A DNA stretch of 64,000 nt from the NCBI GenBank assembly GCA_039801565.1, contig JBDRUX010000001.1:51403-115402 (forward strand). Direction: 5' to 3'. The notes beneath the pieces were generated by a model. That model had not been told where the DNA came from and did not search any database. It saw only the letters and a list, made by a program, of their open reading frames with translations. Source of the DNA: a candidate division WOR-3 bacterium. GTDB taxonomy: Bacteria > Hydrothermota > Tepidihabitantia > Tepidihabitantales > JAOUPE01. The position numbers were made by a program, and so were the translations under genes. Shown piece after piece: positions 8,594 through 63,214 of the stretch. Position 1 is the stretch's first letter. Each line of letters begins with the position of its first letter.

Positions 8594-9130
8594 ATCCGGG
8601 ATATTGTCAAAAACTTTATGAAAGAGACCACAGAGAATCCGAATGGGATTAAGAAAGAAAAAGGGAACTCTGAAACAAGTTCAGAGTCGACTTCGTCGAA
8701 TCACAGAGATAAATTAAGTTCTTTGTGTTCGCCTCACGCAGTGAGATTCTTCTCAATATGCTTCTTCATCTTTTTCCTGTTTATTTGTGTTCATTCGTGG
8801 TTTTCCCCTTTTCGTTCGGTGGACGCTGCGTGTAGCTCGTAAGAGATTCGCTTTAAGGAACATAGTTCATCAAACGCGGATTGAAGGAAGGTCTAAAAAG
8901 ACTGAAATTCAAGGAACACAGAGGGGGAGCCCGATTTGGGTAAGTTCTTGAGCTTAAAAAGAATTCTCTGTGTTCTCTGTGGTTGATTTTGACAATACCA
9001 AATCTGATTTGAGGAAAAACCCCTCAACTCCCCATCTTTAAAAGAGATGGTTCAAAATTGTTTCCGCCTCAGGCGGATTCAATTTGGGGATTTAAAGGGA
9101 CAAAGCCCTTTGGTAGTTTTGCATCGCAAA

Positions 9131-9262
9131 GGTTAGTTAAAACTAACGTTTCCCAATGACCAGTTTTTCTTCTATCATATTGATTATCCAAGTAGTTAGT
9201 CGTAAGACAGCTTAGAGGGAGGGTATGGCGGGGTGGCAGTATCCGGGGCAGTGGCAGGGCTA
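9131..9262 (+). repeat. Copy E (short) of the dispersed repeat family: 16-bp palindrome GTTAGTTAAAACTAAC plus G-rich head TTAGAGGGAGGGTATGGC
   Basis: The palindrome (9131-9146) and head sequence are shared with copy A at 36753. The head matches copies B and D. Confidence 0.5.
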
Positions 9263-9477
9263 GCTTATAAAGCAACCCAATTAGTTGTTTTTGGTACATA
9301 TTCAGACTTTACCTTCGACTCTATCCGAATTACTACTTAGAGGAAAGTTTTCCGGCCTGGTTAGCGAATAGGTTCAAAGGCTGGCTGATAGGATAGAAGA
9401 CAAACAAAATAAGCAGTGAACTGGAAAATTAGATAGTCAATCGCCTGAGAAGATAATCTTCAGTCCCTTCCAGTGGA

Positions 9478-10884: not shown

Positions 10885-10886
10885 GA

Positions 10887-21616: not shown

Positions 21617-21919
21617 TCAAGTGCTAATAGTCGGTGGAACCGGTTTCGGTGGCTGAGGAATACCATCCGGTGGCACCGGCTTCGGTGGTTGCGGAATACC
21701 ATCAGCAAAAATCAGAGGAGGTACGGGTTTAGGAGGTTGGGGAATACCATCGGTGTAAAGCCCCGGTGGAACCGGTTTCGGTGGCTGAGGAATACCATCC
21801 GGTGGCACCGGCTTCGGTGGTTGCGGAATACCATCAGCAATCACTGCGAAGACAGTGATCAGGAGCACAATCCATAAAAGCGCGGTAGTATGTCGCACAG
21901 AGCCTCCTTTCTTGGGCAT
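21617..21919 (-). CDS. small membrane-anchored protein with five tandem DGIPQPPKPVPP repeats
   Basis: N-terminal TM (ALLWIVLLITVFAVIA). A 36-nt tandem coding repeat, present 5 times. Confidence 0.55.
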   Translation of the reverse strand: MPKKGGSVRHTTALLWIVLLITVFAVIADGIPQPPKPVPPDGIPQPPKPVPPGLYTDGIPQPPKPVPPLIFADGIPQPPKPVPPDGIPQPPKPVPPTIST

Positions 21920-27464: not shown

Positions 27465-27557
27465 CAATAAAGTGCGACAGATGTTTGTCGCATTTAGAAA
27501 TGCTATGTTTTATCAATTTAAATAGTTAAAATAATCTATGTAGGGGAGAATATAGAA

Positions 27558-27631
27558 TGGGCCGTGCAGGACTCGAACCTGCGGCCACCGGATTAAAAAT
27601 CAGGTGCTCTACCAGCCTGAGCTAACGGCCC
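27558..27631 (-). tRNA. tRNA-Lys (anticodon UUU)
   Basis: Reverse complement GGGCCGTTAGCTCAGGCTGGTAGAGCACCTGATTTTTAATCCGGTGGCCGCAGGTTCGAGTCCTGCACGGCCCA. The 7-bp acceptor stem, D arm and T arm (GCAGG/CCTGC) pair correctly. Anticodon loop TT-TTT-AA. One T-C mismatch occurs in the anticodon stem. Confidence 0.8.
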
Positions 27632-27721
27632 ATTGAGATTTTTTATATAGATTTTACTCAGGTTAAAACTTGCACTCATTTTACTGAAAAGTTATTTTAT
27701 TGTCAATAATAAACATCCCCC

Positions 27722-44922: not shown

Positions 44923-46383
44923 TTAAACCAGATATCCATAATTTATCCACTGAGTTATCTTTTTGATTTTATCATCAAAATCTGGTCTACGGCGCCTTTC
45001 TTGTTCGATTTTTTGACAGGCGTGAAGAACTGTAGTATGGTCACGGCCGCCAAAGTAGTCGCCGATGTCTTTAAGAGTGTAATTGAGAATTTGGCGCATC
45101 AAATACATTGCGACCTGCCTTGCTTCGACCTCAACTTTAGTTTTTTGGCGCGTCCTGATTTTACTCGGACTTATATTATATTCATTAGCGGTAGCTTGGA
45201 CTATTTGGTCGGCGGTAATTTTAACGGTTGGGGGTATAATTGCTTTCAACACTGCCTCTACTTGTCCCTTAGTAATTGGTTCGGACCGAATGGAACTCAT
45301 TGCTATCAGTCGGATTAATACACCTTCTAATAGCCTAATATTGGTAGTTACTCGCGAGGCAATTAGATAAGCTATGTCTTGACTTATCGGAAAACCTTCC
45401 TCTTCAGCTTTTCTTTTAATTATTGCTATTCTCGTTTCTAACTCCGGCGGTTGAATATCCACAACTAACCCGGCTTGTAATCTTGAGGCTAACCTTTCTT
45501 CGATAGTTGGAATCTCGTAGGGTGGACGGTCTGAAGTGAATGCCACTTGCTTACCAGCTTGATGTAAATAATTAAACAAATGGAAAATTTCTTCTTGTAA
45601 CCGTTCCTTACCTTTTAGATAATGAATATCATCAATTAACAATATATCACAGGACCGGTACCGTTGTTTAAAAGACAGGGTATTACCTCGGCCAATTGCT
45701 TGGATTAATTCGATGAAAAGATTTTCTGCGGGGGTATAGAGTATTTTCAAAAGAGGGTTAATTTTTTTAGCATGGTTACCTATTGCCTGAAGCAAATGGG
45801 TCTTACCTAACCCTACGCCTCCATATATAAACAGGGGATTATAACTTCGTGCCGGAGATTCAGCCACTGCTTTTGCCGAGGCATACGCTAAGCGGTTGCT
45901 TTCACCCACGATAAAATTACTAAATGTATATCGTTCATTAATATTATCCAACCCCTGAACCTTATACTTAAACGCTTCAATCTCATCTTTAAACTCTTGG
46001 GTCACTTCATTAGCTGCCACAAAACAAACCTTTATTGGTTGGTCCGAAACTTTTTTAACAGCAAGCTCAATCATTTTTAGATAGTACTGGCTGATCCAAT
46101 CAATAAAAAAATGGTTTGGGGTTTGCACGGTTAAGATATTATTTTTCATAGAGATGCCTTTAGTGGGTAGTAGCCAAGTTGTAAAACCTTCCTTGTTGGT
46201 CAATTCAGAACTTAATACGTTAAGGACCTTATCCCAGAAAAGACGGGCTATATCGTATTCGGACACTGTCCCGGACCCATCATTAACAGAATTAGCTTTA
46301 AGCTCCGTACTTGAAAACCCAAATTCGTAACTGGAATTTGGAGTATTTTCCATTTTTCCTGGCTGATTCAAAATAGTATCCAT
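44923..46383 (-). CDS. dnaA: chromosomal replication initiator protein DnaA
   Basis: AAA+ Walker A GGVGLGKTHLL, LLIDDIH, and the C-terminal DNA-binding signature DIGDYFGGRDHTTVLHA. Confidence 0.9.
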   Translation of the reverse strand: MDTILNQPGKMENTPNSSYEFGFSSTELKANSVNDGSGTVSEYDIARLFWDKVLNVLSSELTNKEGFTTWLLPTKGISMKNNILTVQTPNHFFIDWISQYYLKMIELAVKKVSDQPIKVCFVAANEVTQEFKDEIEAFKYKVQGLDNINERYTFSNFIVGESNRLAYASAKAVAESPARSYNPLFIYGGVGLGKTHLLQAIGNHAKKINPLLKILYTPAENLFIELIQAIGRGNTLSFKQRYRSCDILLIDDIHYLKGKERLQEEIFHLFNYLHQAGKQVAFTSDRPPYEIPTIEERLASRLQAGLVVDIQPPELETRIAIIKRKAEEEGFPISQDIAYLIASRVTTNIRLLEGVLIRLIAMSSIRSEPITKGQVEAVLKAIIPPTVKITADQIVQATANEYNISPSKIRTRQKTKVEVEARQVAMYLMRQILNYTLKDIGDYFGGRDHTTVLHACQKIEQERRRRPDFDDKIKKITQWINYGYLV

Positions 46384-46455
46384 TTTCTTATCCTTACCAC
46401 GGGTTGATATTACAAAAATTAATTTTAGAAAAAATCATTGCTCGGCGCACGGACG

Positions 46456-46540
46456 ATATCCACACAGATATCCACAAAGTTCGAATATTTAAGTTTCTGA
46501 TAATTCGAGACTTAATCATCAGAACCAGAAATTTCCACAA
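46456..46540. promoter_or_regulatory. cluster of three DnaA-box-like 9-mers (ATATCCACA x2, TTTCCACAA) immediately upstream of dnaA; oriC / dnaA promoter candidate
   Basis: Boxes at 46456-46464, 46468-46476 and 46532-46540 match the TTATCCACA consensus at 8/9 or 7/9 positions. An AT-rich stretch follows at about 46560-46640. Confidence 0.45.
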
Positions 46541-47972
46541 ATCGTTTTTCATTGTCTTTCTTTGTATGATATAATATTTAAAAAAAGCTATTAGTCAAGT
46601 TACAATATTGAAACTAATTTTTCAATGTTACGCCGGTGGGGTTAAAAATGTCATACCTCTTTGCAATGTTAAACAATCCCTAAAGAGGTATTCAAATTTT
46701 CTCTTTCTTCTACGGCGCGCGGGGATGGTGTTTTAAGGATAACAATCCTAAATTCGGTTAGTGCCTGACCTATTTGCGCTGGCTCAGCCTCGGATACTTT
46801 TGATAATTAAATCAGTATAAAGGGTCTCGAACGTGCCGTATTTTCTACCGTTTTTAGAGCAAGCGTATTTTCCCAGTGGTTAAGAAATTCTGGCGACAAG
46901 ATGTTTTTCGGAGTTGGTCATTAAAGAAGAAGTAAATTTAATTTTTTCATCAATAGCTGGTATCTAATAATGATTTTAAGGAAAAACATCTTTCCGAACT
47001 AATTTGCCGAATTTTCCAGTTTCAAGTCTTTTTGGGATATCGTTTCTGTTTGATACTTTAGGGTATGAGGATGGTGGGTAGTGTTTTATGAGAGATGGTG
47101 ACGGCCTATTTTTAAAAATTAAGCTAAATGGCAATAATTGATTATTGGGTTCGTTCCTTAATTACTTAAATTTCTTTTCTAATTTCGATGGTGGTTTTAT
47201 TGCAAAGTGGTTTGTGCGTTTTTAATATCGGTCAATATTGCGCTTCTATTCCTTAGTCGATATGCTGTTTTGCTGGCTTTTGCATTTACCTTTTAAACAA
47301 CTTCGTTAACTACCACGAGACAAACCTTAGCGCTCGGTCAGAAATTTTTAATAGCATTCTTAAAATAGTGGCAAACCAAGGAACGAAAATTAGAAATTGC
47401 CGGTGGGGCGATACTTTAATCCAGCCGGTTTCTTAATCCAGTTTTTAAGAATAAAATTAAGTGGAAAGCCACTCAAGAGGACATTGCTGAGATAGATTGG
47501 CCCTTGTGAGAAATCGAATGATAACTGATTTGTGGTTACAGAAGGTATTATTGGAACTTAAGTTATTAATTTAGTTAGGGTCATCAATAATACTCCCTGT
47601 TTTACATAAGCTTAAAAAATTTAATTATTAAACCATAAGACACAGAATCGAAACGGCAGTTTACTTTTCGGCTATTGGTTTTTATGCCCCAGGTGAGCCA
47701 AAAGCCAACAAAAATTTTTGACAACAAAGTGAACAAATGTTTCACGTGAAACATTTAATGAATTAAAGTTAAGATTCTTCTGTCTTGTAGTCTTGATATG
47801 GGCTTATCTCCAATTTAGTTGGGGATTTTTAGAATAAAGTATTCCGTATCTGAAGTCAATAAACTCGCTGTTTGATATACTTATAATTGTTTATCTCTTC
47901 TAATCCACTGGGGTTAATTCAGATACTCGCTATCAGCCTGGGCACAATGATACTTAATATTTACGGATCCTA

Positions 47973-48440
47973 TTAATCCCTCGATTGAAATCCGCTACCA
48001 CTATTTAATATCTTCTCGCTCCGACCTGCGTCCATCCAAACCACCTGTTCCGTCTTGTAATCTAATACCGCGGTCAAATACTTATGTCTATGCCAAATCG
48101 CAATCTCATCAATAGCCAAAATCCTTAAACCCCTATAGTCCACTTCGCCAAATTCCTCTTGCAATGCCTACTTGTATCAATCTCTTTCACTGTTTTCCAA
48201 CTAATCCTAAATGCTCTGCAACCTCTTTAGCGCTCATATGCTTACATAAAGCGGGAATGCACCCGGAGATAAACTTTGGAAGTAGCAAGATTCAAATTCC
48301 TAATTGCTCGGTTGGTATGAGAATGAATTTCCATCTACCTTGGGCGGATTTCGGACAAAGGGTACAAAGTGGAGTAAAGCGGCGATCCGAAGTAAAATTG
48401 ATGATTGCCTTTAAACAATTTTTTCTACTGACTGCCCAAT
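47973..48440 (-). pseudogene. frameshifted remnant of an ISL3-family transposase
   Basis: The minus-strand translation gives SAKEVAEHLGL..WKTVKEID followed, in another frame, by YRGLRILAIDEIAIWHRHKYLTAVLDYKTEQVVWMDAGRSEKIL. These match the ISL3 motifs (W-x-TV ... IDE-x-A ... H-x-Y-x-T-v-v-D ... GR). Stops occur in all frames around it. Confidence 0.45.
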
Positions 48441-49607
48441 AATTTTACGGAGGTAATAAGGGAAGTATGTTTTGATATTTGCAACAGGTAATTTGGTTGC
48501 CTCACTTTAATTATAGACGCATATTTGTAATCTCAGATAATTACATCACCTTTAATTTCCAACTTTTTGGATAATAACCAAATTTATAAGCTCTTCTTAA
48601 TTAAGTATGAAAACAATGTGTTAGACGAGATGGGTTTTAAAATTTGGGATATTTTCGCCGTAAGTGTTTTTAATTTAATTACTTATATATTCTTCAAACT
48701 TAACTGCTTGTTCTAACTTCCTTGCGTGCTCCGTGAGACGAACTCGCGGATTTTCTCGACAGTAATCAATTGGATATAAATAAGTGGCAGCGCGGGAGAC
48801 GCTTGTAATTGTAGTAATCACTCCAACGTCCCATAGCCGCTAAAGCCTTGTAGCAACTCCCTAAATCTTCTACAGTTAAACCTTCGTCACAATGAGTCCG
48901 ATGCAATCTTTCCGATCGACTATTAGACTCAGGATGCGCTACACGAGTCTTAACATCAATTGAGCCTTGAGCCCGTTAAGTTAACGTTCCGCCCGCAGCG
49001 TCAAGGTGAAATTCCGATGCTCAGGAACCCGACTATAAAATTATTCCATAATATCTACCAAGCAATACCAACGCGGTAAAATAAAAAAGATACATCAACT
49101 TTATATCCAAAACTTAATCCAAGTGGTTTGACTAAAGCAGTCTTACTAAACTTTGCTTTGCGGTCTCTCTTCGGCATAAGAGGTTATACTCATTTAAAAT
49201 CCGATAATGTCGAAGATAAACTACATCGTTTTCATCTACCGGCTACTATACCGTCTACTAAGGTCGGTCGTTTATTATGACTTGTGGTGTTGGAAAGTAT
49301 TGGTCGGCTTATTGTTTGTCTCAAAAGCAACAATAAATCCACTCTTATCCGTCGCACAAATTTGAGCATTGCAAGTCCGTTTTATCATCCTATTACCCAT
49401 CAATATAAACCGATAATCCTAATCAACTAACAAAACCTGGATCTTCGCCAGCAGTAACTGTTCCTATTCATTCTTGACCAATTTTCTTTCGCCGCTCTTG
49501 AATCTTGCCTACATCCGCAATCCTCTGTTCTGACTTTACCAGCGAAACATCAATCTGAATCTTTATCCTATTTTAGGAAAGACCTCTGCGGAGATAAGAC
49601 CAAGAAA

Positions 49608-49892
49608 CTAATTTACAGATTTCTTATATTCGGCAAGCCAAAGCTTTGCCTTACCTTTAAGGACTTTTAAGATTTTATCGAGGTCTTTTTGCTCAATTAA
49701 GATTACGCCGGGTAAAATTCTTTGATGCGGGATTTGGGCTAAAATTCCAGCTCTTGAATACCGGTACTTACCAAACTGAGAGAAGTCGGTATAACCATAG
49801 AGCTTACGGCGGATTTTTATGGCTTGGGTTGGGGTTAAGTTGCTTTTCATTTTAAAGGCGACAAGCAATAAATTAGCATTTACTTTTTTCAT
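49608..49892 (-). CDS. hypothetical protein
   Basis: 94-aa ORF with no recognisable motifs. Sits at the edge of the gene-poor region. Confidence 0.3.
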   Translation of the reverse strand: MKKVNANLLLVAFKMKSNLTPTQAIKIRRKLYGYTDFSQFGKYRYSRAGILAQIPHQRILPGVILIEQKDLDKILKVLKGKAKLWLAEYKKSVN

Positions 49893-50105
49893 ATAAGAAG
49901 TATAGTTAACGTTTTTGGTTTGTCAAGGCGGAATTTGAAATCTTGCTTCAAAATTTGTCCTAAATTAGATGAGCCGGGTTAATGGTTACTACATTTTTGC
50001 ACAGTCTCGATTAAGACGAGAACTGTCGAACCTTAGAATAGGTGGGAATGATAAAGAGCAAAAATTCAAAACCACATTTTTTTTCAGAGTTCTCATATAT
50101 AAGCA

Positions 50106-50466: not shown

Positions 50467-50711
50467 TAAAATGAATGCACAATTAACGACCGCAAGCAAT
50501 AAATTTTCCTTGACAAAGTCCTAAACCGAGTTATGATTTTATGTAATTCTAATGGTTGCGAAGCAATGGACTTGGGGTTTGGCAGCGATTTTACCGAAGG
50601 CGATAAAATTTTAGGAATTGCTCTTTTCCTTTATTTTTGTGAACAGACTGATTCGCCACAAACCTAATGGCGAATCGGTTAAAACTTGAAAACAAAAAGA
50701 AGGAGGAACAA

Positions 50712-53700
50712 ATGGATTTCAGCAGTAATAAACAAAAGAGGTTAGGCAAGAAGACCTGCTTTTCGATTTTTACCTATATGCTAATCCTATTAGCACTCGT
50801 AAGCACCGGACTCCAAGCTGGTTCAATTACCGAAAAGTTCAATTTTGCAAAAAGTGAAATAGGATTCAAGAAGATTGGCGAATTCGATTTGCCGGTAATA
50901 CGGGATTGGCTTTATACCGCGGAGGTTGGTAAGCCAATGATTCCTTATCTAATTTTTCAGGTTTTAGTTCCACCAACGGCAGAAGTTACTGAGGTAAAGG
51001 TCTTGTCATTTAAGAAAGTTGAAGTTGAAGGCAAATATTATATTCATCCCAGTCAACCACCAGTGCCAATTTCTTACAAAGGCGAGATTCCTTTTGTGCC
51101 ACCTGATGAAGCAACTTATAATTCAACTGAAGAGTATCCAGCCCGGTTGGTTGATTTTGTGCCGACTGGTTCAAAAAGTGGCTACCGGATTGCTGGGGTT
51201 GAGGTTTATCCTTTACATTATGTGCCTAAGGAACGGAGGCTTTTCTTATACACCGAACTGGTCTTAGAAATTATTTATGAAGAAGGTAAGGTTGCACCGC
51301 AACTTTTAACCGAATCCCAGAAGAGACTTTTTGGTCAAGAAGTGCGAAGTTTAATAATCAACAAAAAGGATTTAAAACGTTTTGAACCACCGACGAAACT
51401 GATTGACCAAGGTAACGAGATTGATTACTTGATTATAACCAGTAGCACCTTGGAATCGAATTTCCAGCCCTTAGCCGAATGGAAGACTAAAAAAGGCTGG
51501 AACACCAAAATTCGAAATACTAACTGGATAAATACTAATTATTCCGGCCGGGACTTACAAGAAAAAATCCGAAATTACATTCGAACCTGTTTCGCCGATT
51601 CAGGTTTGAAGTTTGTGCTTCTGGCAGGTGATAATTCGATAATCCCAAAACGAGGAACATATGCCTGGGTTTCACCTCATATTGACAGTTTCATACCTTG
51701 CGATTTGTATTTTGCTGATTTAGATTGGAGTTGGGATGGTAACCAAAACAATGTTTTTGGCGATACTTGGACAATAGGCGGTAGGCGAGACACGGTTGAC
51801 CTTTATTATGATGTTTACATCGGAAGGGCATCAGTAGAAACAGCGAGCGAAATTTCCAATTTCTTGAATAAATTATTTACCTATGAGAAGAATCCAAATA
51901 CTGATTACATCAAAAGAATCCTTTTACCTTGGGGGGTACTATGGTCAGGTTATGATAGCAAACAATCGCAAGATTCGATAGCGAAATATACACCGGCTGG
52001 TTGGACTGACCGCTATATCAATGATACAAGAGTGGTTAATGAAGTTAGGGATTCGTTAAATAATGGTTTTCAATTCTGCCATTTGGTTGGGCATGGCAAT
52101 GATGTTGGGGTTTATTGGACAAGCACCGGACCAGCAATGTATCATACCGGCCATCCCGGAACACAGACCAATGTTAATAAGTATCTTATTGCTAATTCGA
52201 TTGCTTGCTATCCAGGTAATTTTGAATACTCGGATTGTCTTGCTGAATCTATGGTGAATGTCCAGAATTGTGCGGTGGCGGTGATTATGAATTCAAGATA
52301 TGGTTGGGGAACGCCGCCTAACATTGGTCCTTCAGAACTTCTTGATTTTCAATTTTATTATTTCTTTTTTAATTATGATACCTTCCGAATCGGTATCACC
52401 CATGCCGAATCGAAAGAATTTTATCGGAACTCAGCTCTTAACCAACAGGTTTGGCGTTGGTGTTATTACGAGTTAAATCTCTTTGGTTGTCCGGAGATGC
52501 CGATGTGGCAGGATGTTCCTTTGACAATGACTCTTGCCTTTGACGATACAATAAACACTGGTAGCCAAACTTTTACTGTAACCGTCACTGACCCGAGTGA
52601 TGCGCCGGTTGTGAATGCTTTAGTTTGTCTTTGGAAAGGAAATGAAGTTTATGTGCGGGGGTATACTAATGCCAGCGGTATCGTTAACTTTACAATAAAT
52701 CCTACCACTGTTGGTCAAATGTTTGTTACCGTCTCGGCTTTTAATCATTACCCGAAAGAGGATACTTGTTACATTATTGAGCAGAACGAGGATGTCGGCG
52801 TTACGACTATTATTACACCAACCGGCAATATTGACTCGAGTGCGGTCTCCTCAATTATACCTCAAGCAACAATTCATAACTATAGCATTTCCGATACGCT
52901 AAGTTTCCCAGTAATTTTCTATATCTATGACAGTGGCTGGAATTTAGTATGGGCGGATACTCAGCAGATATTAGACCTTGGTCCTAACCGCGATACGACA
53001 ATAAATTTTGCTGCTTTAGGCATTGAATTGTCACGTGGCATTTATAACACTAAATGCACAACCGCCCTGGTTGGTGATATTAACCCATCCAATGACTGGC
53101 AGGATAGTTCATTTACGGTTATTGTCCACGATGCTGGGATGATTGATATTGTGACGCCAACCGGACTTATTAAGAAAAATAGTGTTATCACACCTCAAGT
53201 AACAGTGCGGAATTTTGGCAGTGTTAGAGATTCTTTTGATGTGATATTAACGATTGGAGCGACTTATGTTGATACCGTCTTCACAACCCTTGACCCTAAC
53301 AACCAAACAACACTTAGTTTTAATCCTTGGACCGCAACTGCAATTGGGACATTTCAAGTTCGCTGCACCACCGCTTTAATTGGCGATTTAGTCACAGTCA
53401 ATGATACTTTATCGGATTCGGTAATAGTCTACGATGATGATGTCGGTGTGGTGGCAATTTTGGAGCCAGTTGGTCCGACCGATTCGACTGCGACGATTGT
53501 GCCCCGCTGTAGTGTTTACAATTATGGTTCATCACCAGCTACTTTTTCGGTTACTTTTAGAATCTTAGAAGCGGGTTATAGCAATACGCAAACCGTTACC
53601 GCATTAGCCCCCAATACCGGCACAGCGATTCCTTTTGCGCCCTGGTTGGTCGGGCCAAGGGGCAATTATACGACAAGATGTTCAACCGGAATGAGTCCCG

Positions 53701-56700
53701 ACACCAATGCATTGAACGACACTTTATCCGGTTCGTTTACGATTCGGGTGCATGATGTTGGTGTTACGGAAATTCTTGCCCCAATTGGTGTCGTTGCCTT
53801 AAATAGTTCAATTACACCCCAAGCAGTAGTTAGAAATTTTGGTACCGAGACCGATACCTTTGATGTTTCGCTTGTTGTTCTAACATCGCCGTCGAGTTCT
53901 TGGACGGAAACTGGAATAATTTTAGATTCTGGTGCGGTTGATACGGTCAGTTTTGCCCCGAACTGGACCGCAAGTCCTTTAGGAACATTTGAAGTCCGTT
54001 GTTCGACATCTTTAACTAATGATTTAGTCGTTGCTAATAATCTGAAGATTGATACGGTCATTGTTACGGATTTTGATGTTGGCGTAGTAGCGATTCTTGC
54101 TCCGGTAGACACATTAGATTCGACTGCTACCCTTGTTCCACAATGTAGTGTTTATAATTATGGTTCATCAGCGGTAACTTTCCCGGTGACTTTCCGAATC
54201 TTAGAAGCGGGTTATACCGCTACCGAGACAGTAATTGGCCTGCCACCAAATACTGGGACAACGGTTTCCTTTGCGCCTTGGACAGTAGGACCGCGCGGTT
54301 CTTATACAACCCGATGTTCAACCGAACTTATGCCAGATTTTAATCCAGTAAACGACACTTTATCTGGTTCATTTGTGATTCGAGTGCACGATGTTGGGGT
54401 GACTGAGATACTAGCACCAGTGGATACCGTGATTCTTAATCACGCTTATAATCCGAAAGCGGTTGTCACTAACTTTGGGTCGGTGCGTGAGACTTTTAAT
54501 GTCTCATTGGTTATTCTTCCGACAATACCACCACCAAATTCGTTTACGCAATCCGTCACATTACCGGCAGGTGAAACCGATACGGTAGACTTTAATTTAG
54601 CACTCTGGGTGGCAACACCACTTGGAACTCATCAGGTCCGCTGTTCTACGGATTTGGCTAACGATTTAGTCCCCAATAACAATCTAATAATTGATTCGGT
54701 GACGGTTTCCGATGCGGATGTTGGAGTGACGGCAATCGTCTTTCCTACCGGCAATGTTGATTCGACAGCAACAATAACACCACTGGTTAGTTTTTATAAC
54801 TATGGTACTAATCCAGCGTCATTCCCAGCAATTCTTACTTTCACCGGGCCAGCTAATTATGTTGATACTCAAATTGTCAATTTGGCCGGTAATAGTGGCT
54901 TGACGATACCGTTTGACCCTTGGACTGTTGGACCGCGTGGCACTTATCAGGTGAAATGCACTACTGCCCTTGCCTTTGACACCGCAGCAGTAAATGATAC
55001 GATGTCAGGTTTCTTTTCCATTATTGTTCATGATGTCGCGACAATTGAAATTATTGCGCCGAAGGGAGTGATGCCGTTGAATCGAAGTGTCACTGCCCAA
55101 GCGGTAGTACGAAATAATGGAACCCAAGCTGAGAGTGTTGATGTTTCGATGATTGTTTTGACACCAGTGCCGACTACTTGGACGGTGACGATAGATAATT
55201 TAGGGGCTGGTGTGACCGATACGGTTGATTTTGGGTTATGGACGGCAACACCACTTGGCACCCATCAGGTTCGTTGTTCGACCGATTTGGCTAATGATTT
55301 AGTTCCAAGTAATAATCTAATAATTGATTCGGTGACGGTTTCCGATGCGGATGTTGGAGTGACCGAAATCTTGTATCCAACTGGAACAATTGATTCAACG
55401 GTATCATTGATTCCAGAAGCGGTTGTCTTCAATTATGGTTCGCAAGCTATATCCTTCCCAGTTATTATGAGAATTTTACCACCAGCAACTTATGTTAATA
55501 TTCAGTGGGTGAATAATCTTCCACCCAACACCGCTGATACAGTTCAATTTGCGCCTTGGACAATCGGACCGCGGGGAACTTATACTGTTCGATGTTCTAC
55601 CGCTTTAAATATTGATACCAGTGCGGTAAACGACACAGTCTCACGACAATTTGAAATCATTGTTCACGATGTTGGAACTACTGAAATTCTTGCCCCCAAG
55701 GGTATTGTTCCTTTAGGTAGTCCGGTTACACCTCGTGCAGTGGTGAGAAATTTTGGGACTGAGACCGATACCTTTGATGTCTCGCTTACCGTTCTGACCG
55801 TGCCACCAAGTTCTTGGACCCAAACCGGGATAGTCTTGAACCCAGGTGAAGTTGATACCGTCAGTTTCGCACCAAACTGGACAGCAGGTCCGGTTGGAAT
55901 TTTCCAGGTTCGCTGCTCAACTTCGATGGTGCAGGATTCGGTATTGGCTAATAATCTTCAAATTGACACGGTTCAGGTGGTCGCATTTGATGTTGGTGTA
56001 AATGCCATTGTTGCACCAGTTGGAACCATTGATTCTTCTACTACTCCAACGGTTGTGCCTCAGGCAAGCATAACGAATTATGCAACTATACCGGTTAGTT
56101 TCCCCGCAATTTTCCGTATCACCCGTGGTGCTTATATTTGGGCTGATACCCAGACTATTAATCTAAATGCTGGACAAACTACTACGGTTAGTTTTGACCC
56201 TTGGACAGTTGGGCAAACCGGTATTTACACAACACGCTGCACAACTGGTTTGATTGGTGATGTCGACCCAACTAATAATCACACTGACAGTACTTTCCGA
56301 GTTGTAACCCCGGGTGGTGATGTGGGAGTGACCGCATTGATTCTTAACCCATCTGGACCGAATGTTGATTCCGGCACAACCATTCAAATTTCTGCCCGTG
56401 TTAAAAACTTCGGTACCGAGGTCTCCACTTTCCAGGTGAAGACAAAGATTGGTACTTTTTATCTCGACAGCCTACCGACACCACTTACCTTAAATCCTGG
56501 CGATTCCGCAACGGTAAGTTTTAGCAATTGGGTTGCAGTCCGGCGTGGCCAACACATTGTGCGATGTAGCACCGAATTAGATGGCGACATTGACCATTCT
56601 AATGACCGTCAGACAAGAAATATTACAGTCTTGGTTCGCGATGTGCGAACCTATTCAATTTTGGCACCAACCGGCAATATTGATTCAACCGCTAATCCAA

Positions 56701-59168
56701 TCACACCACAGGCAATAGTTGAAAATTCAGGCAATGTTTTAGTAGATAGCTTCCCGGTAATATTCACTATAACTGGACCAGCCACCTGGACGAATACTCA
56801 GATGGTTAGGAATTTGCCGGCTGGACAACAGCGGACAGTAGACTTTGCACCTTGGACAATTGGTCCGGTTGGTGCTTATACAACGGCTTGTAGCACCGCT
56901 TATGCCCTTGATATGAACCCGTCTAATGACCGGCGTACCTCACAATTCTGGATTCAAAGGGTTGATATCAGCGTTGACTCCATTGTCTCACCATTAGGTG
57001 TGGTAGATTCCAATTCGGTTGTGCCAGTCCAAGCCTGGGTATCAAACCAAGGCACCTCAAACAAAACCTTCTTGGCTATTTTCCGAATCGGCACCTTTTA
57101 TACTGATACTGTAATCATAACCCTTAATTCACTTGCCGATTCGTTAGTCACCTTTGACACTTGGCGTATCTCACAACCAAAAGGGATTTATCCAGTCCAA
57201 TGCACGACAGTGATTGCCAATGATGCCAATCCCAATAATAACCAAGATACAGGTTCGGTGCAAGTGCGCGTCAAAGATGTCGCAATAGATTCAATCATTT
57301 CGCCAAGCCCAGTTATTCCACCCGGCATAATGAATCCAATTGCCCGAGTCATCAATAATGGCAGTGATTCACTTGATTTTTATGTCTATTTCCGAATTCG
57401 TAGTGCCAGTGGTACGGTTTATTTCGATTCCGCTTATGTTCCACTCTTGGCACCGGATTCGAGTTACGACGCCACTTTTCCGGCTTGGGATGCAGTGCCT
57501 GGTATTTATATTGCTCGTTGTTCCTTAGCAATAGCTGGTGATATGGTTCGAAGCAATGACACCTTATCAATTACTTTTAATGTTGCGACTCGGGATGTGG
57601 GTGTCTCAAGAATTGTCTTTCCAGGAAGACGGACTTTATTAGGACCAATTCAACCGCGCGTTGTTGTGAAAAACTATTCCAGTACTATCGAATCATTCTG
57701 GACTTGGTTCAGCATCACTGATACAGCGAGTGGTAGTAATGTCTATTTTGATTCGGCATTTTGTGCCGACTTAGGTCCTTGGATGGAACAAATTCTTGAC
57801 TTCCCAATCTGGACCGCTAACCTTGGCGGTTATCGGCTTGTTTCGTATACGGCTTTAGTTGGTGATGATAGCACAGCTAATGATACAGTTACTGCCTACT
57901 GTCAGGTTGATTCAATTATTTTGCCAAAATGGGCACAAAAAATGGATATGCCACTTGGACCAAGAGGCAGACCAGTGAAACGGGGTGGTTGTATTACCTT
58001 TGGTGGTAATAACCTCTTATTCGCCCTCAAAGGTGCCGGTACCAACGAATTCTACTCCTACAATATTACCTCGGACACTTGGGTAACCTTGGAAACGATA
58101 CCCTATGCCTTAAATAAGAAAAAGAAAGTAAAGGGTGGCTCTGCAATTTGTTATGATGGCAATAACACAATATTTGCCCTCAAGGGCAATAACACTCTTG
58201 AATTCTGGGCTTATTCAATTCCTTACTCTACCTGGATCCAATTAACTGATGTCCCAGCTGGGAGCAAACGAGCTAAAGGCGGCTCGGGTCTTGCTTTCGT
58301 CCCAGGTCCAACTGGTGGTTTAATCTATTGTCTGAAAGGTAGTAAGACCTTTGAGTTTTATGCCTATTCCATTGCCACTAATACTTGGATTTTCCTGCGC
58401 AATGCGCCAGCCGGCTATCGGGGCAAACCATTTGACAAAGGTAGTTGTCTCACCTATGACCCAAGTACCAATCAAATCTTTGCCTTAAAAGGCTATGAAA
58501 ACGAATTCTTCGCCTATGATATCATTGCTGATTCTTGGACAATTAAAGCATCGCTACCAATATATGGCTTTGCTGGACAAAAACGAGCCAAAGAAGGTGC
58601 AGCACTGGTTGCCGATGGTTCTGGTCTTATCTATGCCTTCAAAGGCAATAATTCACAAGAATTCTGGGTCTATCACATTGCCGGTGACTGGTGGGAACAG
58701 GTTGACCCGATTCCGATTGGACCAAACAATCGCAAAGTCAACCAAGGTGGCGCTCTCGCCTATGTTCCGAGCATTGGCAAAATTTATGCTCTAAAAGGAA
58801 ATCGAACTCGAGAACTTTGGGCTTATGACCCCAATGCATTATCACTTTTGAACTCGTTGAACGATTTGAACTCTTCATCGGGCACTATGGAAACAGAAAC
58901 CCGTCCGCTTGAGTTAATTAACTTCAAAGTAACCCCGAACCCGAACAAAGGAAATTTCATATTAAAATACAATGTAGATAAGATTCGTCCGATTACAGTT
59001 AAACTTTACAATGCCTTGGGTGAACGAGTCTTTGAACAAACTAAGCAAGTTACGAATAAATCAGGAACGATTACGATTGACACTGAAAAACTGGCGATCG
59101 GCATCTACATTATGCGGATAGAGTTCGATGGCGTAAGGTATAGCGAAAAGGTTCTAATTCAGAGGTAA
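50712..59168 (+). CDS. Giant T9SS-secreted gingipain-family (peptidase C25) protein with ~15 CARDB-like repeats, a Kelch-like beta-propeller and a T9SS C-terminal sorting domain
   Basis: AAGGAGG sits 6 nt upstream of the ATG at 50712, so the track's 50667 start is likely over-extended. Signal peptide. C25 catalytic contexts (LLAGDNSIIP, HLVGHGND, NSIACYPGNF). Repeats of about 100 aa (DVGVTEILAP...TPQAVVRNFG...VRCST). About 8 blades of the (K)GG-x-[LA]-x~10-IYALKG-x4-EFWAY-x5-W type. CTD VTPNPNKGNF...KLYNALGERV...GIYIMRI...KVLIQR. Confidence 0.8.
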   Translation: MDFSSNKQKRLGKKTCFSIFTYMLILLALVSTGLQAGSITEKFNFAKSEIGFKKIGEFDLPVIRDWLYTAEVGKPMIPYLIFQVLVPPTAEVTEVKVLSFKKVEVEGKYYIHPSQPPVPISYKGEIPFVPPDEATYNSTEEYPARLVDFVPTGSKSGYRIAGVEVYPLHYVPKERRLFLYTELVLEIIYEEGKVAPQLLTESQKRLFGQEVRSLIINKKDLKRFEPPTKLIDQGNEIDYLIITSSTLESNFQPLAEWKTKKGWNTKIRNTNWINTNYSGRDLQEKIRNYIRTCFADSGLKFVLLAGDNSIIPKRGTYAWVSPHIDSFIPCDLYFADLDWSWDGNQNNVFGDTWTIGGRRDTVDLYYDVYIGRASVETASEISNFLNKLFTYEKNPNTDYIKRILLPWGVLWSGYDSKQSQDSIAKYTPAGWTDRYINDTRVVNEVRDSLNNGFQFCHLVGHGNDVGVYWTSTGPAMYHTGHPGTQTNVNKYLIANSIACYPGNFEYSDCLAESMVNVQNCAVAVIMNSRYGWGTPPNIGPSELLDFQFYYFFFNYDTFRIGITHAESKEFYRNSALNQQVWRWCYYELNLFGCPEMPMWQDVPLTMTLAFDDTINTGSQTFTVTVTDPSDAPVVNALVCLWKGNEVYVRGYTNASGIVNFTINPTTVGQMFVTVSAFNHYPKEDTCYIIEQNEDVGVTTIITPTGNIDSSAVSSIIPQATIHNYSISDTLSFPVIFYIYDSGWNLVWADTQQILDLGPNRDTTINFAALGIELSRGIYNTKCTTALVGDINPSNDWQDSSFTVIVHDAGMIDIVTPTGLIKKNSVITPQVTVRNFGSVRDSFDVILTIGATYVDTVFTTLDPNNQTTLSFNPWTATAIGTFQVRCTTALIGDLVTVNDTLSDSVIVYDDDVGVVAILEPVGPTDSTATIVPRCSVYNYGSSPATFSVTFRILEAGYSNTQTVTALAPNTGTAIPFAPWLVGPRGNYTTRCSTGMSPDTNALNDTLSGSFTIRVHDVGVTEILAPIGVVALNSSITPQAVVRNFGTETDTFDVSLVVLTSPSSSWTETGIILDSGAVDTVSFAPNWTASPLGTFEVRCSTSLTNDLVVANNLKIDTVIVTDFDVGVVAILAPVDTLDSTATLVPQCSVYNYGSSAVTFPVTFRILEAGYTATETVIGLPPNTGTTVSFAPWTVGPRGSYTTRCSTELMPDFNPVNDTLSGSFVIRVHDVGVTEILAPVDTVILNHAYNPKAVVTNFGSVRETFNVSLVILPTIPPPNSFTQSVTLPAGETDTVDFNLALWVATPLGTHQVRCSTDLANDLVPNNNLIIDSVTVSDADVGVTAIVFPTGNVDSTATITPLVSFYNYGTNPASFPAILTFTGPANYVDTQIVNLAGNSGLTIPFDPWTVGPRGTYQVKCTTALAFDTAAVNDTMSGFFSIIVHDVATIEIIAPKGVMPLNRSVTAQAVVRNNGTQAESVDVSMIVLTPVPTTWTVTIDNLGAGVTDTVDFGLWTATPLGTHQVRCSTDLANDLVPSNNLIIDSVTVSDADVGVTEILYPTGTIDSTVSLIPEAVVFNYGSQAISFPVIMRILPPATYVNIQWVNNLPPNTADTVQFAPWTIGPRGTYTVRCSTALNIDTSAVNDTVSRQFEIIVHDVGTTEILAPKGIVPLGSPVTPRAVVRNFGTETDTFDVSLTVLTVPPSSWTQTGIVLNPGEVDTVSFAPNWTAGPVGIFQVRCSTSMVQDSVLANNLQIDTVQVVAFDVGVNAIVAPVGTIDSSTTPTVVPQASITNYATIPVSFPAIFRITRGAYIWADTQTINLNAGQTTTVSFDPWTVGQTGIYTTRCTTGLIGDVDPTNNHTDSTFRVVTPGGDVGVTALILNPSGPNVDSGTTIQISARVKNFGTEVSTFQVKTKIGTFYLDSLPTPLTLNPGDSATVSFSNWVAVRRGQHIVRCSTELDGDIDHSNDRQTRNITVLVRDVRTYSILAPTGNIDSTANPITPQAIVENSGNVLVDSFPVIFTITGPATWTNTQMVRNLPAGQQRTVDFAPWTIGPVGAYTTACSTAYALDMNPSNDRRTSQFWIQRVDISVDSIVSPLGVVDSNSVVPVQAWVSNQGTSNKTFLAIFRIGTFYTDTVIITLNSLADSLVTFDTWRISQPKGIYPVQCTTVIANDANPNNNQDTGSVQVRVKDVAIDSIISPSPVIPPGIMNPIARVINNGSDSLDFYVYFRIRSASGTVYFDSAYVPLLAPDSSYDATFPAWDAVPGIYIARCSLAIAGDMVRSNDTLSITFNVATRDVGVSRIVFPGRRTLLGPIQPRVVVKNYSSTIESFWTWFSITDTASGSNVYFDSAFCADLGPWMEQILDFPIWTANLGGYRLVSYTALVGDDSTANDTVTAYCQVDSIILPKWAQKMDMPLGPRGRPVKRGGCITFGGNNLLFALKGAGTNEFYSYNITSDTWVTLETIPYALNKKKKVKGGSAICYDGNNTIFALKGNNTLEFWAYSIPYSTWIQLTDVPAGSKRAKGGSGLAFVPGPTGGLIYCLKGSKTFEFYAYSIATNTWIFLRNAPAGYRGKPFDKGSCLTYDPSTNQIFALKGYENEFFAYDIIADSWTIKASLPIYGFAGQKRAKEGAALVADGSGLIYAFKGNNSQEFWVYHIAGDWWEQVDPIPIGPNNRKVNQGGALAYVPSIGKIYALKGNRTRELWAYDPNALSLLNSLNDLNSSSGTMETETRPLELINFKVTPNPNKGNFILKYNVDKIRPITVKLYNALGERVFEQTKQVTNKSGTITIDTEKLAIGIYIMRIEFDGVRYSEKVLIQR

Positions 59169-59185: not shown

Positions 59186-59219
59186 AGCCCGCACCTTTTG
59201 GTGCGGGCTTTCCCTTTTG
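59186..59219 (+). terminator. rho-independent terminator after the giant C25 gene
   Basis: agcccgcacc-tttt-ggtgcgggct followed by ttcccttttgg. Confidence 0.55.
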
Positions 59220-59291
59220 GTAAATAACTTGACTTTGGTTCTTTATGAGGGTAAATTGTTGGCAATGCAAGCGAAACAATCGGTCCATTAT

Positions 59292-61202
59292 ATGCCTGAT
59301 AAAAAATTATGGTGTGCTGTAGCCATTTTAATTTTGGTAGCGAAAAATCCAATTTACTCCGCTAAGACGAAGCAACTCAACAATCCAGTGAATTGGGATA
59401 CAACAAGAATTTATTCAGGGTCCGGAACATTACAAAAAATTTCAGTGGGTAATAAATTAAAAGGAGTAAACGATGATACCTTTCGGATAGCTACCGGTCA
59501 ATCAACACTCAGACGAAATGCTTTAATCCTCACTGATACTTCCAGTGCACCACCAATGAAATGGCGAGCCGATTCTATTTTCTCAGGAATGGATAATAAT
59601 GGCATATTGAGTGTTGCAATTGGTGATGTTGATGGTGATGGAACAAATGAGGTTATTTTTGGTCAAGCTGGGGGTAACCTGAAAAGAGTTAAATGGATTG
59701 CAAATTCCTGGAATGTAACTCAGATTGATTCTCAAGGTGGTCAGGTGTATGACATTGCGATTGGCGATGCCGATAATAATGGAATCCAAGATATAATTTT
59801 TGCTCGTTACAATTATGTTTTTAGAAGTTATTGGGCTGGCAGTTCTTGGCAGACCAATCAAATCTGGTCTGGGGATGGTAATCGTTGCCACGGCGTTGCA
59901 ATTGGTGATTTTGATACTTCTTCCTCAGGAAATGAGGTTGTTGCGGTTACTTATAATGGCAAGGCGGTGCGAATTAGATGGAATGGTTCAAGCTGGGAAA
60001 ATTATGTAATGTATGATAATTCCAGTTGTCGGTTTTATGAACCAGCGATTGGTGATTTTGATATTTTAAATCTTGGACAAGAGGTTGCTTTCGGGAATGC
60101 TTTGCCAACCCCAAGTTATGGGTCAGTTATTGAACTTTTTGGCTCAGGTACAAACTGGTCAGTTAGAGCGATTTATAATCCGATAGGTAGTGAAGCTTGT
60201 TACAATCTTGCGATTGGCGATATCTTTGATGAGCATGAAGGTCTGGAAGTTATTGCTATTGGTATTAGAAGCGGCGACGATTCAATTCGAGTTATTTATG
60301 GAAGCGGTTCAAGTTGGACAAATCAAGCAATTATAGGTTTTTCTCAGATATTAGGTGACAATGGCATTGCCGTTAGTGATATTAATAAATACCGAAATCA
60401 TAATCAGGAAATTGTCTTTGCCCGAAATACAATCCTTTACGAAGCTGAACAGAGAATTCCTCCCGGACCAACTATAACTAATATCTCCCATAACCCAAGA
60501 ATTCCTTTGTCATCAGAAAGTGTTACAGTAAGAGCAAAAATTCTCGACACATTGACCTTAACTGCTGATAGCCTTTATTATGCAATAAATAGTCCAAACA
60601 ATTGGCAATCAATTTATCATTCCAATCTTGACTCATTTTATTATTACACAATTCCCACTCAAGATACCGGTGCAATAATTTATTATTTTATAACCGCCAA
60701 AAATAATGGCGGTGGCAGAAGCCAAAGCCTAATCTTTTCCTATCAAGTTGCTTACGAACATAGTATCTATCAGATTCAATATACTTCTGGTTCTTCTGAT
60801 ACTTCACCGGATAATAACAAATATGTTTTTACTAAAGGAATTGTAACTGGGATATTTGGACGATTTTTCAATATTGAAGAGAAGCCCGGAGGTGCCTGGC
60901 ACGGTATTCATATTCGAAGACCAGCGTTTAGTGATACCACACCCAATTTAGTTATTGGCGATAGTGTTGAAGTTCTCGGTCGCGTGCAGGAATTAGCCAA
61001 TCAGACTGTAATCAATGTCTTTTATGATAGTGGCGGTCGAGTGCAAAGAATTGAGCCAGCACGACCATTACCCTGCACCACCCTAACCACAATTAGCCAA
61101 ATCGCTGAATCGTTAGAAGGCACATTGGTGAGGATTGATACTCTGCGTTTCAAAATTACCGGAATATTTCAACCCAACACAGTTTATTGGGTATATAATT
61201 AG
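59292..61202 (+). CDS. FG-GAP-repeat beta-propeller protein; probable N-terminal part of a split T9SS cargo gene
   Basis: Signal peptide MPDKKLWCAVAILILVA. The track's 59217 start overlaps the upstream terminator. FG-GAP motifs IGDVDGDGTNEVIFG, IGDADNNGIQDIIF and IGDFDTSSSGNEVV. No T9SS CTD. The stop at 61200 comes 2 nt after the downstream frame opens. Confidence 0.55.
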   Translation: MPDKKLWCAVAILILVAKNPIYSAKTKQLNNPVNWDTTRIYSGSGTLQKISVGNKLKGVNDDTFRIATGQSTLRRNALILTDTSSAPPMKWRADSIFSGMDNNGILSVAIGDVDGDGTNEVIFGQAGGNLKRVKWIANSWNVTQIDSQGGQVYDIAIGDADNNGIQDIIFARYNYVFRSYWAGSSWQTNQIWSGDGNRCHGVAIGDFDTSSSGNEVVAVTYNGKAVRIRWNGSSWENYVMYDNSSCRFYEPAIGDFDILNLGQEVAFGNALPTPSYGSVIELFGSGTNWSVRAIYNPIGSEACYNLAIGDIFDEHEGLEVIAIGIRSGDDSIRVIYGSGSSWTNQAIIGFSQILGDNGIAVSDINKYRNHNQEIVFARNTILYEAEQRIPPGPTITNISHNPRIPLSSESVTVRAKILDTLTLTADSLYYAINSPNNWQSIYHSNLDSFYYYTIPTQDTGAIIYYFITAKNNGGGRSQSLIFSYQVAYEHSIYQIQYTSGSSDTSPDNNKYVFTKGIVTGIFGRFFNIEEKPGGAWHGIHIRRPAFSDTTPNLVIGDSVEVLGRVQELANQTVINVFYDSGGRVQRIEPARPLPCTTLTTISQIAESLEGTLVRIDTLRFKITGIFQPNTVYWVYN

Positions 61203-61324: not shown

Positions 61325-63214
61325 ATGCCAAGAATAATAGAAGATTTTAGTCTCTTGCTAGTTGATTTTGGTCCAACTGAAATTTTATCTCCGCCGGATA
61401 CCGTCAATTATGGTGATAGTATCTTCCCAAAGGTTATAATCCGTAACTACCAAATGACGCCGGTGACGAACCTATCAGTCTGGCTTCGGATTGGTAACAC
61501 TTATACCAACGAGCGATTCTTCCCAAAACTGGCATCCCAGCCTTATGACACTATTGAATTTAATCTATGGTTAGGCAGTCCAGGGTGGCAGGAGATTAAG
61601 ACTTGGACGAGATTGCGCAACGACTTAAATCCCAATAACGACACGCTCTTAGATTCAGTTTATGTCCGTCCGCCGGCTTTACCACCTGATGTTGGCGTAA
61701 CCGAAATCATCCTAATGAATGATACCGTTTCAATTGGTGATACTTTCATTCCAAAGGCAATAGTAAAGAATTTCAGCCCAACACCGGCTGTTAATTTCTT
61801 TGTCCATTTTAAGATTGGCAATGTTTTCTCCGATTCGGTCTTTATACTAAATTTTGGTCCTTATCAGATTGATACAATCCAATTCCAACCTTGGGTTGCT
61901 CAACTCGGTATTTATCAACTAACCGCCTATACTAATCTTTACCTTGACCCTAATCCAAATAATGACACTGCCTATGGTTCGTTATTGGTTAGAACTATCA
62001 CTGGTGGTTGGCAGGAGCGAAGTAGTATGCCAATTGGTAGTGGGAAAAGAGTCAAGCAAGGCGGTGCTTTGGTTTATACCCGCCACGATACAATTTATGC
62101 CCTCAAAGGCAATAACACTCTTGAATTTTATGCCTATAATACAACTACCGATTCCTGGGTGAAAAAAGAATCGTTGCCGATGCTTGGCACAAAGCCAAAA
62201 CGGGTGAAAAAAGGCGCGGCATTAACCTATGACAGATGGAATAATAAAATCTATGCCTTAAAAGGTAATAATACCCGTGAGTTCTGGCAATACGACCTAT
62301 TAAAAGATAGCTGGATTTATTTAGGCGAAGTCCCTTCGGCAAATGGCAAGGGAATAAAAGGCGGGTCAGCACTCGCTTGTGCTAAAATTGGTCAGAATAT
62401 TTACATCTACTTTATGAAGGGCACAAAAACTTCCGAGTTCTACGCCTATGATGCCACTCCCGATACTTGGATTAAAAGTTTGAAACCGATTCCGATTCTG
62501 CCGAGCGGCAAACCAATGAAAGATGGCAGTTGTATGGTCAAAGGTGATAGTGTCCTATTTTGTCTAAAAGGTGGCTATAATGACTTCTATGCCTATAGTA
62601 TTGGTTCGGATACCTGGTATCTAAAGAAGTCACTACCGATAATGGGTGCCAGCCAGCGAAAAAAGAAAGTAAAAGATGGTGCTGGTTTATGTTATGACGA
62701 TGCTCATAATGTTGTTTATTGCCTCAAAGGCGGCAATACCCAGGAATTTTGGGCTTATTATCCAGATTTGGACACCTGGATGGAATTAGAGACAATTCCA
62801 AAAGGATCTTCTAACAAACGAGTAAAAAGTGGTGGTGCTTTAACTTTTGCTGATGGTTTAATTTTCGCTTTAAAAGGTAATAATACTCGTGAATTATGGT
62901 GTTATACGCCGAACTCAATCAAACTTCAAAACCCAATTCGCTTATCTGCGGTGTGCGCGAATCAAACTGCAATACCCAGGGGCATTACAATCCAAAGCAA
63001 AAGCAATACAATAAATATTAAATTCGGTCTAAATATTCCATTAATTGATTACAGTTTATACGATGTTTTAGGCAGGGTGGTTAAAAGCGAAAAAATTAAG
63101 ATAAAAAATAATATCTTATCAATTAATATGAAAGGTATGCCTTCCGGCATTTATATTCTCAAATTGAATTATAATAGGACCACAATTACCCAAAAAATCA
63201 TCTTAAATCATTAA
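61325..63214 (+). CDS. CARDB-like repeats + Kelch-like propeller + T9SS CTD; probable C-terminal part of the same split gene (lacks its own signal peptide)
   Basis: Three CARDB-like repeats (DFGPTEILSPPDTVNYGDSIFPKVIIRNY). Seven IYALKGNNTxEF blades. CTD IDYSLYDVLGRVV...GIYILKL...KIILNH. The reading frame is open back to 61199. Confidence 0.55.
   Translation: MPRIIEDFSLLLVDFGPTEILSPPDTVNYGDSIFPKVIIRNYQMTPVTNLSVWLRIGNTYTNERFFPKLASQPYDTIEFNLWLGSPGWQEIKTWTRLRNDLNPNNDTLLDSVYVRPPALPPDVGVTEIILMNDTVSIGDTFIPKAIVKNFSPTPAVNFFVHFKIGNVFSDSVFILNFGPYQIDTIQFQPWVAQLGIYQLTAYTNLYLDPNPNNDTAYGSLLVRTITGGWQERSSMPIGSGKRVKQGGALVYTRHDTIYALKGNNTLEFYAYNTTTDSWVKKESLPMLGTKPKRVKKGAALTYDRWNNKIYALKGNNTREFWQYDLLKDSWIYLGEVPSANGKGIKGGSALACAKIGQNIYIYFMKGTKTSEFYAYDATPDTWIKSLKPIPILPSGKPMKDGSCMVKGDSVLFCLKGGYNDFYAYSIGSDTWYLKKSLPIMGASQRKKKVKDGAGLCYDDAHNVVYCLKGGNTQEFWAYYPDLDTWMELETIPKGSSNKRVKSGGALTFADGLIFALKGNNTRELWCYTPNSIKLQNPIRLSAVCANQTAIPRGITIQSKSNTINIKFGLNIPLIDYSLYDVLGRVVKSEKIKIKNNILSINMKGMPSGIYILKLNYNRTTITQKIILNH

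Follow-up and report, generated by a model that had tools for sequence, protein, structure and literature searches.

The closest described counterparts of the gene considered here are those for the gingipains RgpB and Kgp of Porphyromonas gingivalis (MEROPS family C25), which have a propeptide, a His/Cys catalytic dyad, an immunoglobulin (Ig)-like domain behind the catalytic domain, and a type A C-terminal domain (CTD). Gingipains also carry haemagglutinin/adhesin (cleaved adhesin) domains. PorU, the sortase of the type IX secretion system (T9SS), is a further member of family C25. Another known element is CARDB, the cell adhesion related domain found in bacteria (PF07705; structures 3idu, 2kl6, and 2l0d). 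The gene itself lies within a 64,000-nucleotide (nt) stretch of DNA from a candidate division WOR-3 bacterium, called the window below and used as the reference for coordinates. It occupies positions 50712..59168 of the + strand, on which all of its features lie, and encodes a C25-family cysteine peptidase with a repeat stalk, 2818 amino acids (aa) in total. The propeptide, dyad, Ig-like domain, and type A CTD are shared with gingipains. However, sequence similarity to gingipains is only distant (E 3e-10 to the RgpB structure 1cvr), a stalk of 16 CARDB-fold units with a Kelch propeller takes the place of the haemagglutinin/adhesin domains, and the host belongs to WOR-3 rather than Bacteroidota. 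PorU has the C25 catalytic fold in common with the WOR-3 protein and yields weak NCBIfam matches, but its architecture differs. The stalk units share the fold of known CARDB domains while diverging from them in sequence. The protein is probably a secreted, cell-surface-attached cysteine protease.

As a whole, the locus is read, with a probability of roughly 0.8, as a WOR-3 C25 protease with an ancient, diverged stalk of 16 units in which a single short conversion tract is embedded. The stalk repeats would be the codons of 16 domains derived from an A-B double unit of ~636 nt through old duplications. The units would then have diverged until synonymous sites were saturated, with purifying selection acting on the fold. 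Terminal units would be strictly orthologous between lineages, and a few central units would have undergone old exchange or turnover within a lineage.

The array spans aa 709-2415 (52791..57911) and consists of 16 CARDB-fold units of 103-113 aa each, as delimited with a hidden Markov model (HMM), where the initial annotation had counted about 15 CARDB-like repeats of about 100 aa. Units U1 to U16 start at window positions 52791, 53130, 53439, 53754, 54075, 54390, 54717, 55032, 55350, 55668, 55989, 56319, 56640, 56964, 57276, and 57594, and an HMM built from the 16 delimited units recovers exactly 16 in the protein. A type (…YNYG) and B type (…VRNFG) units, both with a conserved Cys and Trp, alternate across U1-U13, which accounts for the ~636-nt period of the DNA similarities; U14-U16 are divergent. 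The whole protein scores 58.3 bits against Pfam CARDB (cut-off 22.7), and the unit profile matches CARDB structures 2l0d, 3idu, and 2kl6 with E values of 2e-5 to 8e-4. An AlphaFold model of U9, computed with the 16 paralogs as alignment, has a predicted local distance difference test (pLDDT) score of 93.7, and its best match is CARDB domain 3idu (TM-score 0.80, root-mean-square deviation 2.5 Å). By profile and modeled structure, the stalk units have the CARDB fold.

At the DNA level, the units are far from the near-identity that the initial annotation had described for several of them. Identity between units is 38-71% in DNA and 23-74% in protein, and the longest similar DNA stretches are two of 300 nt (72% and 68%) and one of 191 nt (80%). 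Nei-Gojobori synonymous divergence (dS) is at least 1.04 in every unit pair; its median is 2.1, and 33 pairs are saturated. Even the closest pairs, with nonsynonymous divergence (dN) and dS of 0.18 and 1.5 (U3/U5), 0.20 and 1.4 (U4/U10), and 0.31 and 1.0 (U6/U8), are old by this measure. Tandem Repeats Finder, run on 50-60 kb, reports no array of ~106-aa units and lists just four short rows, whose periods are 6-12 nt. The two pairs of sequences quoted as shared between units are nonetheless real. One pair differs at four of 29 positions, all synonymous third positions; the other is a 38-mer that occurs exactly twice, at 54693-54730 and 55326-55363 (0 copies expected), and forms the core of a 50-nt exact direct repeat. 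That 50-nt tract is the only truly identical stretch within the repeat array. Elsewhere in the window, a better example of near-identical tandem DNA is the 100-aa open reading frame (ORF) 21617-21919 (-), which encodes six copies of DGIPQPPKPVPP and, at the N-terminus, a hydrophobic segment; a 77-nt exact direct repeat is present in its DNA, 21632-21708 = 21764-21840, with a period of 132 nt.

The age of the array is indicated by its relatives. A homolog search found about 55 family members (P0001-P0055) in WOR-3 metagenome-assembled genomes (MAGs), and the architecture of C25, CARDB units, Kelch, and Por_Secre_tail is common to them. This is the family that the NCBI Prokaryotic Genome Annotation Pipeline (PGAP) names "C25 family cysteine peptidase". 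Its proteins have 5 (n=5), 6 (n=14), 7 (n=28), 8, 9, 11, or 13 (n=1 each), and 16 units (n=2), a range of 5-16 with a mode of 7; a typical member has 7 units and ~1820 aa. The largest number, 16, is found in the window protein and two relatives. These are P0001, of 97% identity and 2816 aa, from an NCBI WOR-3 MAG (locus L001), and P0002, of 62% identity and 2815 aa (locus L002). The next relative, P0003 (locus L003), has 60% identity, 2488 aa, and 13 units, and the ~50 others, also from WOR-3 MAGs, are of lower identity and 1612-2268 aa. A related-locus search of genome contigs returned only relatives at 40-56% identity.

A neighbor-joining phylogeny of the individual units (200 bootstraps) compares the window units (U or W) with those of two other lineages (B and C). 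Units U11-U16 have one-to-one-to-one orthologs across the three lineages at 90-100% bootstrap, and further positional pairs are U1-C2 (100%), U7-B7 (86%), U9-C6 (88%), and U8-C5 (96%). Some central units group by lineage instead of position, namely W4-W10 (79%) and B4-B6 (68%). The units thus appear as positional orthologs and not as recent duplicates, ancient and diverged at synonymous sites, which is the outcome that the initial annotation had itself named as contradicting its inference. From the tree together with the shared 16 units, the array is judged to predate the split from the lineage that is now 62% identical, with old exchange or turnover confined to its center. By the same comparisons, unit number varies in the family only over long evolutionary time.

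The 50-nt tract stands apart from this picture of old divergence. Copy 1 (54681..54730) lies at the U6/U7 junction and encodes NLIIDSVTVSDADVGVT, while copy 2 (55314..55363) lies at the U8/U9 junction, 633 nt (211 codons) downstream. Each copy covers the final strand of a B unit together with the opening strand of the A unit behind it. Directly upstream of the tract, 25 codons encode protein that is alike at 23 of 25 positions, yet carry 10 synonymous differences (dS 1.0), whereas the tract itself has 0 differences. For a run of such length within the 80%-identical patch, a permutation test yields p = 7e-5. Over the same 17 codons, the tract copies differ at 1 nt, as against 8-29 nt in all other paralogous or orthologous junction pairs. 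In strain L001 the tract is present with one substitution, leaving 42 nt exact, and L002 and L003 have no comparable repeat (longest exact repeats of 24 nt and under 18 nt, respectively). Because U6 and U8 are never paired in whole-unit trees (0% bootstrap), the similarity is local. A short and fairly recent event of gene conversion at unit junctions is the most likely origin of the tract.

Two other accounts of the identical DNA have to be weighed. In principle, 50 nt could be preserved by chance together with codon bias on the strongly conserved peptide NLIIDSVTVSDADVGVT, or by selection at the nucleotide level, for instance on an embedded RNA or DNA signal. The amino-acid constraint is real, as the junction peptide in the positional ortholog B6/B7 has 1 replacement in 17 codons, and a weak promoter-like site (55287-55316) adjoins copy 2. 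However, other junctions with the same or a similar peptide differ at 8-29 nt across these codons, codon identity given the same amino acid is only ~0.39 by chance under the codon usage of this gene, promoter-like sites are no commoner than in shuffled sequence, and the tract is lineage-specific. Such an origin is accordingly thought improbable, and chance plus amino-acid constraint is a weaker alternative to gene conversion. The account given in the initial annotation was broader: recent intragenic duplications, an array whose copy number is unstable through homologous recombination, and a possible collapse or expansion of the assembly. The direct repeat is in frame, and recombination between its copies would remove a B-A double unit precisely; unit number does range from 5 to 16 across the family, and P0003 has 13 units. 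Yet every unit pair has a dS of at least 1.0 and a DNA identity of at most 71%, and for most units the tree recovers a positional ortholog at high bootstrap. A strain 3.2% divergent in the gene (L001, 96.8% identical) has the same 16 units, as does the 62%-identical ortholog. Differences in number occur only among distant relatives.

An assembly artefact is also unlikely. The window and L001 derive from separate assemblies that give the same 16 units in the same order, with U3-U16 ~99.5% identical, and the 50 nt of the only exact repeat fall within the length of a standard short read. The gene, though long and repeat-containing, is in all likelihood correctly assembled. The L001 contig ends 167 nt past the stop codon of the gene (L001 16554-16721), a break downstream of the gene and outside the repeat array. 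Recent duplication with an unstable or mis-assembled array is therefore regarded as very unlikely. What is left of that inference, as far as the comparisons indicate, is recent intragenic recombination in one short tract and a unit number that has changed over long time.

Several observations count against the ancient-array reading of this protease or against parts of it. For the tract, the chance of codon identity over 17 same-peptide codons is ~1e-4 per pair, which is not negligible over 120 unit pairs. Copy-number stability is based on two strains of the lineage, the only ones in the collections searched. Single units match Pfam CARDB at E ≤ 1 in only 3 of 16 cases, and for this reason the CARDB assignment is drawn from the unit profile and the fold. 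The Asp163 of the RgpB S1 pocket is not obviously conserved; the residue aligned with it is not Asp in the HMMER alignment, which is unreliable at that point. The propeller model is of low confidence (pLDDT 65), and no gene of the T9SS machinery (SprA, PorV, PorU, GldKLMN) was found within the 64-kb window.

Reciprocal recombination across the tract would, as is possible in principle, delete or add exactly 211 codons in frame. Exact searches of metagenome and genome collections with the 38-mer gave no match, and no deletion or duplication allele was seen. A more speculative proposal is that the A-B stalk may serve as a recombination scaffold, in which in-frame gain or loss of 211-codon double units, by way of short identical tracts at the junctions, tunes the distance of the head from the cell and the stalk provides a crossover site at which strains exchange the entire head (propeptide, protease, Ig, and U1-U2). 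This proposal is considered improbable. The head-swap part comes from a ten-fold jump in strain-to-strain dS that ends near the U2/U3 boundary.

Compared with L001, the gene is a mosaic. Its 5′ 2.7 kb (window 50625-53400, signal peptide to U2) has a dS of 0.25-0.34 and the rest 0.023-0.029, and the jump begins near the start codon. Most of the DNA flanking the gene differs at ~0.2-2.4% of sites (1-12 substitutions per 500 nt). Within the catalytic domain is a more divergent patch at aa 300-365, numbered from Met16, with a dS of 1.26 and a dN of 0.25. On this pattern, the protease head looks like an import by homologous recombination. A second locally divergent surface-protein segment is found at 42625-43600, with 35 substitutions in 1 kb as opposed to 1-5 per 500 nt nearby; it is the 3′ part of a PGA_cap/PKD/T9SS-CTD gene (41017-43986). 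The analyses made gave no sign of a diversity-generating or phase-variation mechanism, although no dedicated search for a reverse transcriptase or template repeat was included.

The gene and its start at 50712 are as first described, but the length of 2833 aa is that of the longest ORF (50667-59168, +), the sole long ORF there, and the product has 2818 aa. Numbering of amino acids, except where Met16 is named as the origin, follows the longest ORF and begins at 50667. The true start is likely the ATG at 50712 (Met16), because the Shine-Dalgarno sequence AAGGAGG, read directly from the DNA at 50699..50705, lies 6-7 nt upstream and the NCBI product begins at the same ATG. The product from this ATG matches MEO0113925.1, from a candidate division WOR-3 MAG and named "C25 family cysteine peptidase" by NCBI, exactly and residue for residue. 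Upstream is a promoter-like site at 50510..50537 (TTGACA, a 16-nt spacer, and TATGAT), with 11 of 12 consensus matches; the number of promoter-like sites in the region is not above chance when compared with shuffled sequence. An intrinsic-terminator-like hairpin with a 10-bp stem and 8 G-C pairs begins 18 nt past the stop codon (59186-59209, with a T-rich tail to 59219). With the promoter-like site on its 5′ side and the strong terminator-like hairpin on its 3′ side, the gene looks monocistronic.

The protein begins with a putative N-terminal signal peptide (50712..50822), read by eye from the translation. After Met16 it has a basic n-region (MDFSSNKQKRLGKK), a hydrophobic core, and LQA/GS, where the slash marks the putative cleavage site. 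The C25 propeptide domain follows at aa 84-231 (50916..51359; PF08126, 28.4 bits against a cut-off of 22), and this region also matches the RgpB pro-domain 4ief_A with an E value of 7e-4. The catalytic unit recognized in the initial annotation is borne out by Pfam PF01364 at aa 254-612 (51426..52502), with an E value of 5.6e-49 and 167.8 bits against a cut-off of 23. The match spans essentially the full model (profile positions 1-373 of 374). In the HMMER alignment to 1cvr, the predicted catalytic residues His476 (52092-52094, in VGHGN) and Cys514 (52206-52208, in SIACYPGNF) fall on chain positions 211 and 244, the catalytic dyad of RgpB. Behind the catalytic domain, aa 632-705 (52560..52781) form a candidate Ig-like domain with weak, sub-threshold Pfam matches to CarboxypepD_reg, Big_1, and MG4. 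By its full-length model match, pro-domain, and aligned dyad, the gene product, whose activity is predicted, is a member of the C25/gingipain family. Identity with PorU was considered and rejected, as the NCBIfam scores of 45.5 and 18 fall far under the respective cut-offs of 420 and 450.

The stalk leads into a Kelch-type beta-propeller (57933..58826). Six hYAhKG motifs recur at an exact period of 51 aa, at aa 2451, 2502, 2553, 2604, 2655, and 2706. Pfam Kelch_6 scores 33.6 bits (cut-off 25.3), and Beta-prop_ATRN-LZTR1 also matches, the Kelch/beta-propeller region being aa 2445-2685. The structure model contains 24 strands, and its best Foldseek matches are muskelin and the designed protein SAKe6BE-L3, both six-bladed Kelch propellers. 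Motif period, modeled strands, and fold matches agree on six blades, so that the Kelch assignment stands while the eight blades first proposed do not.

The T9SS CTD, also recognized at the outset, is of type A and occupies aa 2757-2831 of 2833 (58935..59159). Both PF18962 (Por_Secre_tail, 40.5 bits against 27) and TIGR04183 (39.9 bits against 23) exceed their cut-offs, and the model is a 7-strand sandwich. Two further window genes, 41017-43986 and 61325-63214, also encode a T9SS CTD, and these argue indirectly for a working T9SS in the host. By analogy with the T9SS cargo of Bacteroidota, export of the protein would proceed via Sec and then T9SS, followed by cleavage of the CTD and anchoring of the protein to the cell surface by its new C-terminus. 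In this arrangement, the propeller would be close to the cell, and the long stalk of 16 Ig-like units would carry the protease head at its far end, perhaps tens of nanometers away.

The downstream neighbors are an FG-GAP repeat protein (59217-61202) and another protein that combines a Kelch propeller with a T9SS CTD (61325-63214). In L003, too, the ortholog is followed by an FG-GAP protein (7748-11572), which suggests a partly conserved cluster of surface proteins. Elsewhere, the window encodes a clostripain-family peptidase (1974-3803) and the peptide transporter CstA (18966-20630). A further gene, 22086-27428 (-), encodes a 1780-aa fusion of a Ser/Thr protein kinase, a STAND/AAA_16 ATPase, TPR repeats, GAF, a sigma-54 activator, and HTH_8. 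Rfam and tRNA scans of the window found only a tRNA-Lys (27557-27632). Beside dnaA (44923-46383, -), the ~3.7 kb at 46400-50100 contain no ORF longer than 94 aa and have a G+C fraction of 0.35-0.38. This region is also present in strain L001, with a 21-column indel near 47625-48124, and has no Rfam match; ORF 47973-48164 (-) within it resembles, by eye, what is presumably a transposase fragment. The region may be an origin region with decayed genes.

The protein is already annotated in NCBI and belongs to a known kind, and its importance goes little beyond annotation. Given a sound assembly of the gene and repeats that go back to old domain duplications, no special caution over repeat instability is needed. 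A literature search found nothing relevant on WOR-3 T9SS or gingipain-type proteins or on C25/CARDB/Kelch proteins. WOR-3 bins are reported among the richest in extracellular peptidases (PMC4411801). The CTD proteins, clostripain-family peptidase, and CstA of the window fit a proteolytic lifestyle. The stalk, the longest in its family with 16 units where the mode is 7, is a modest curiosity for T9SS cargo outside Bacteroidota. The WOR-3 proteins together form a large, uncharacterised family of surface proteases, which may bear on protein degradation in sediments.

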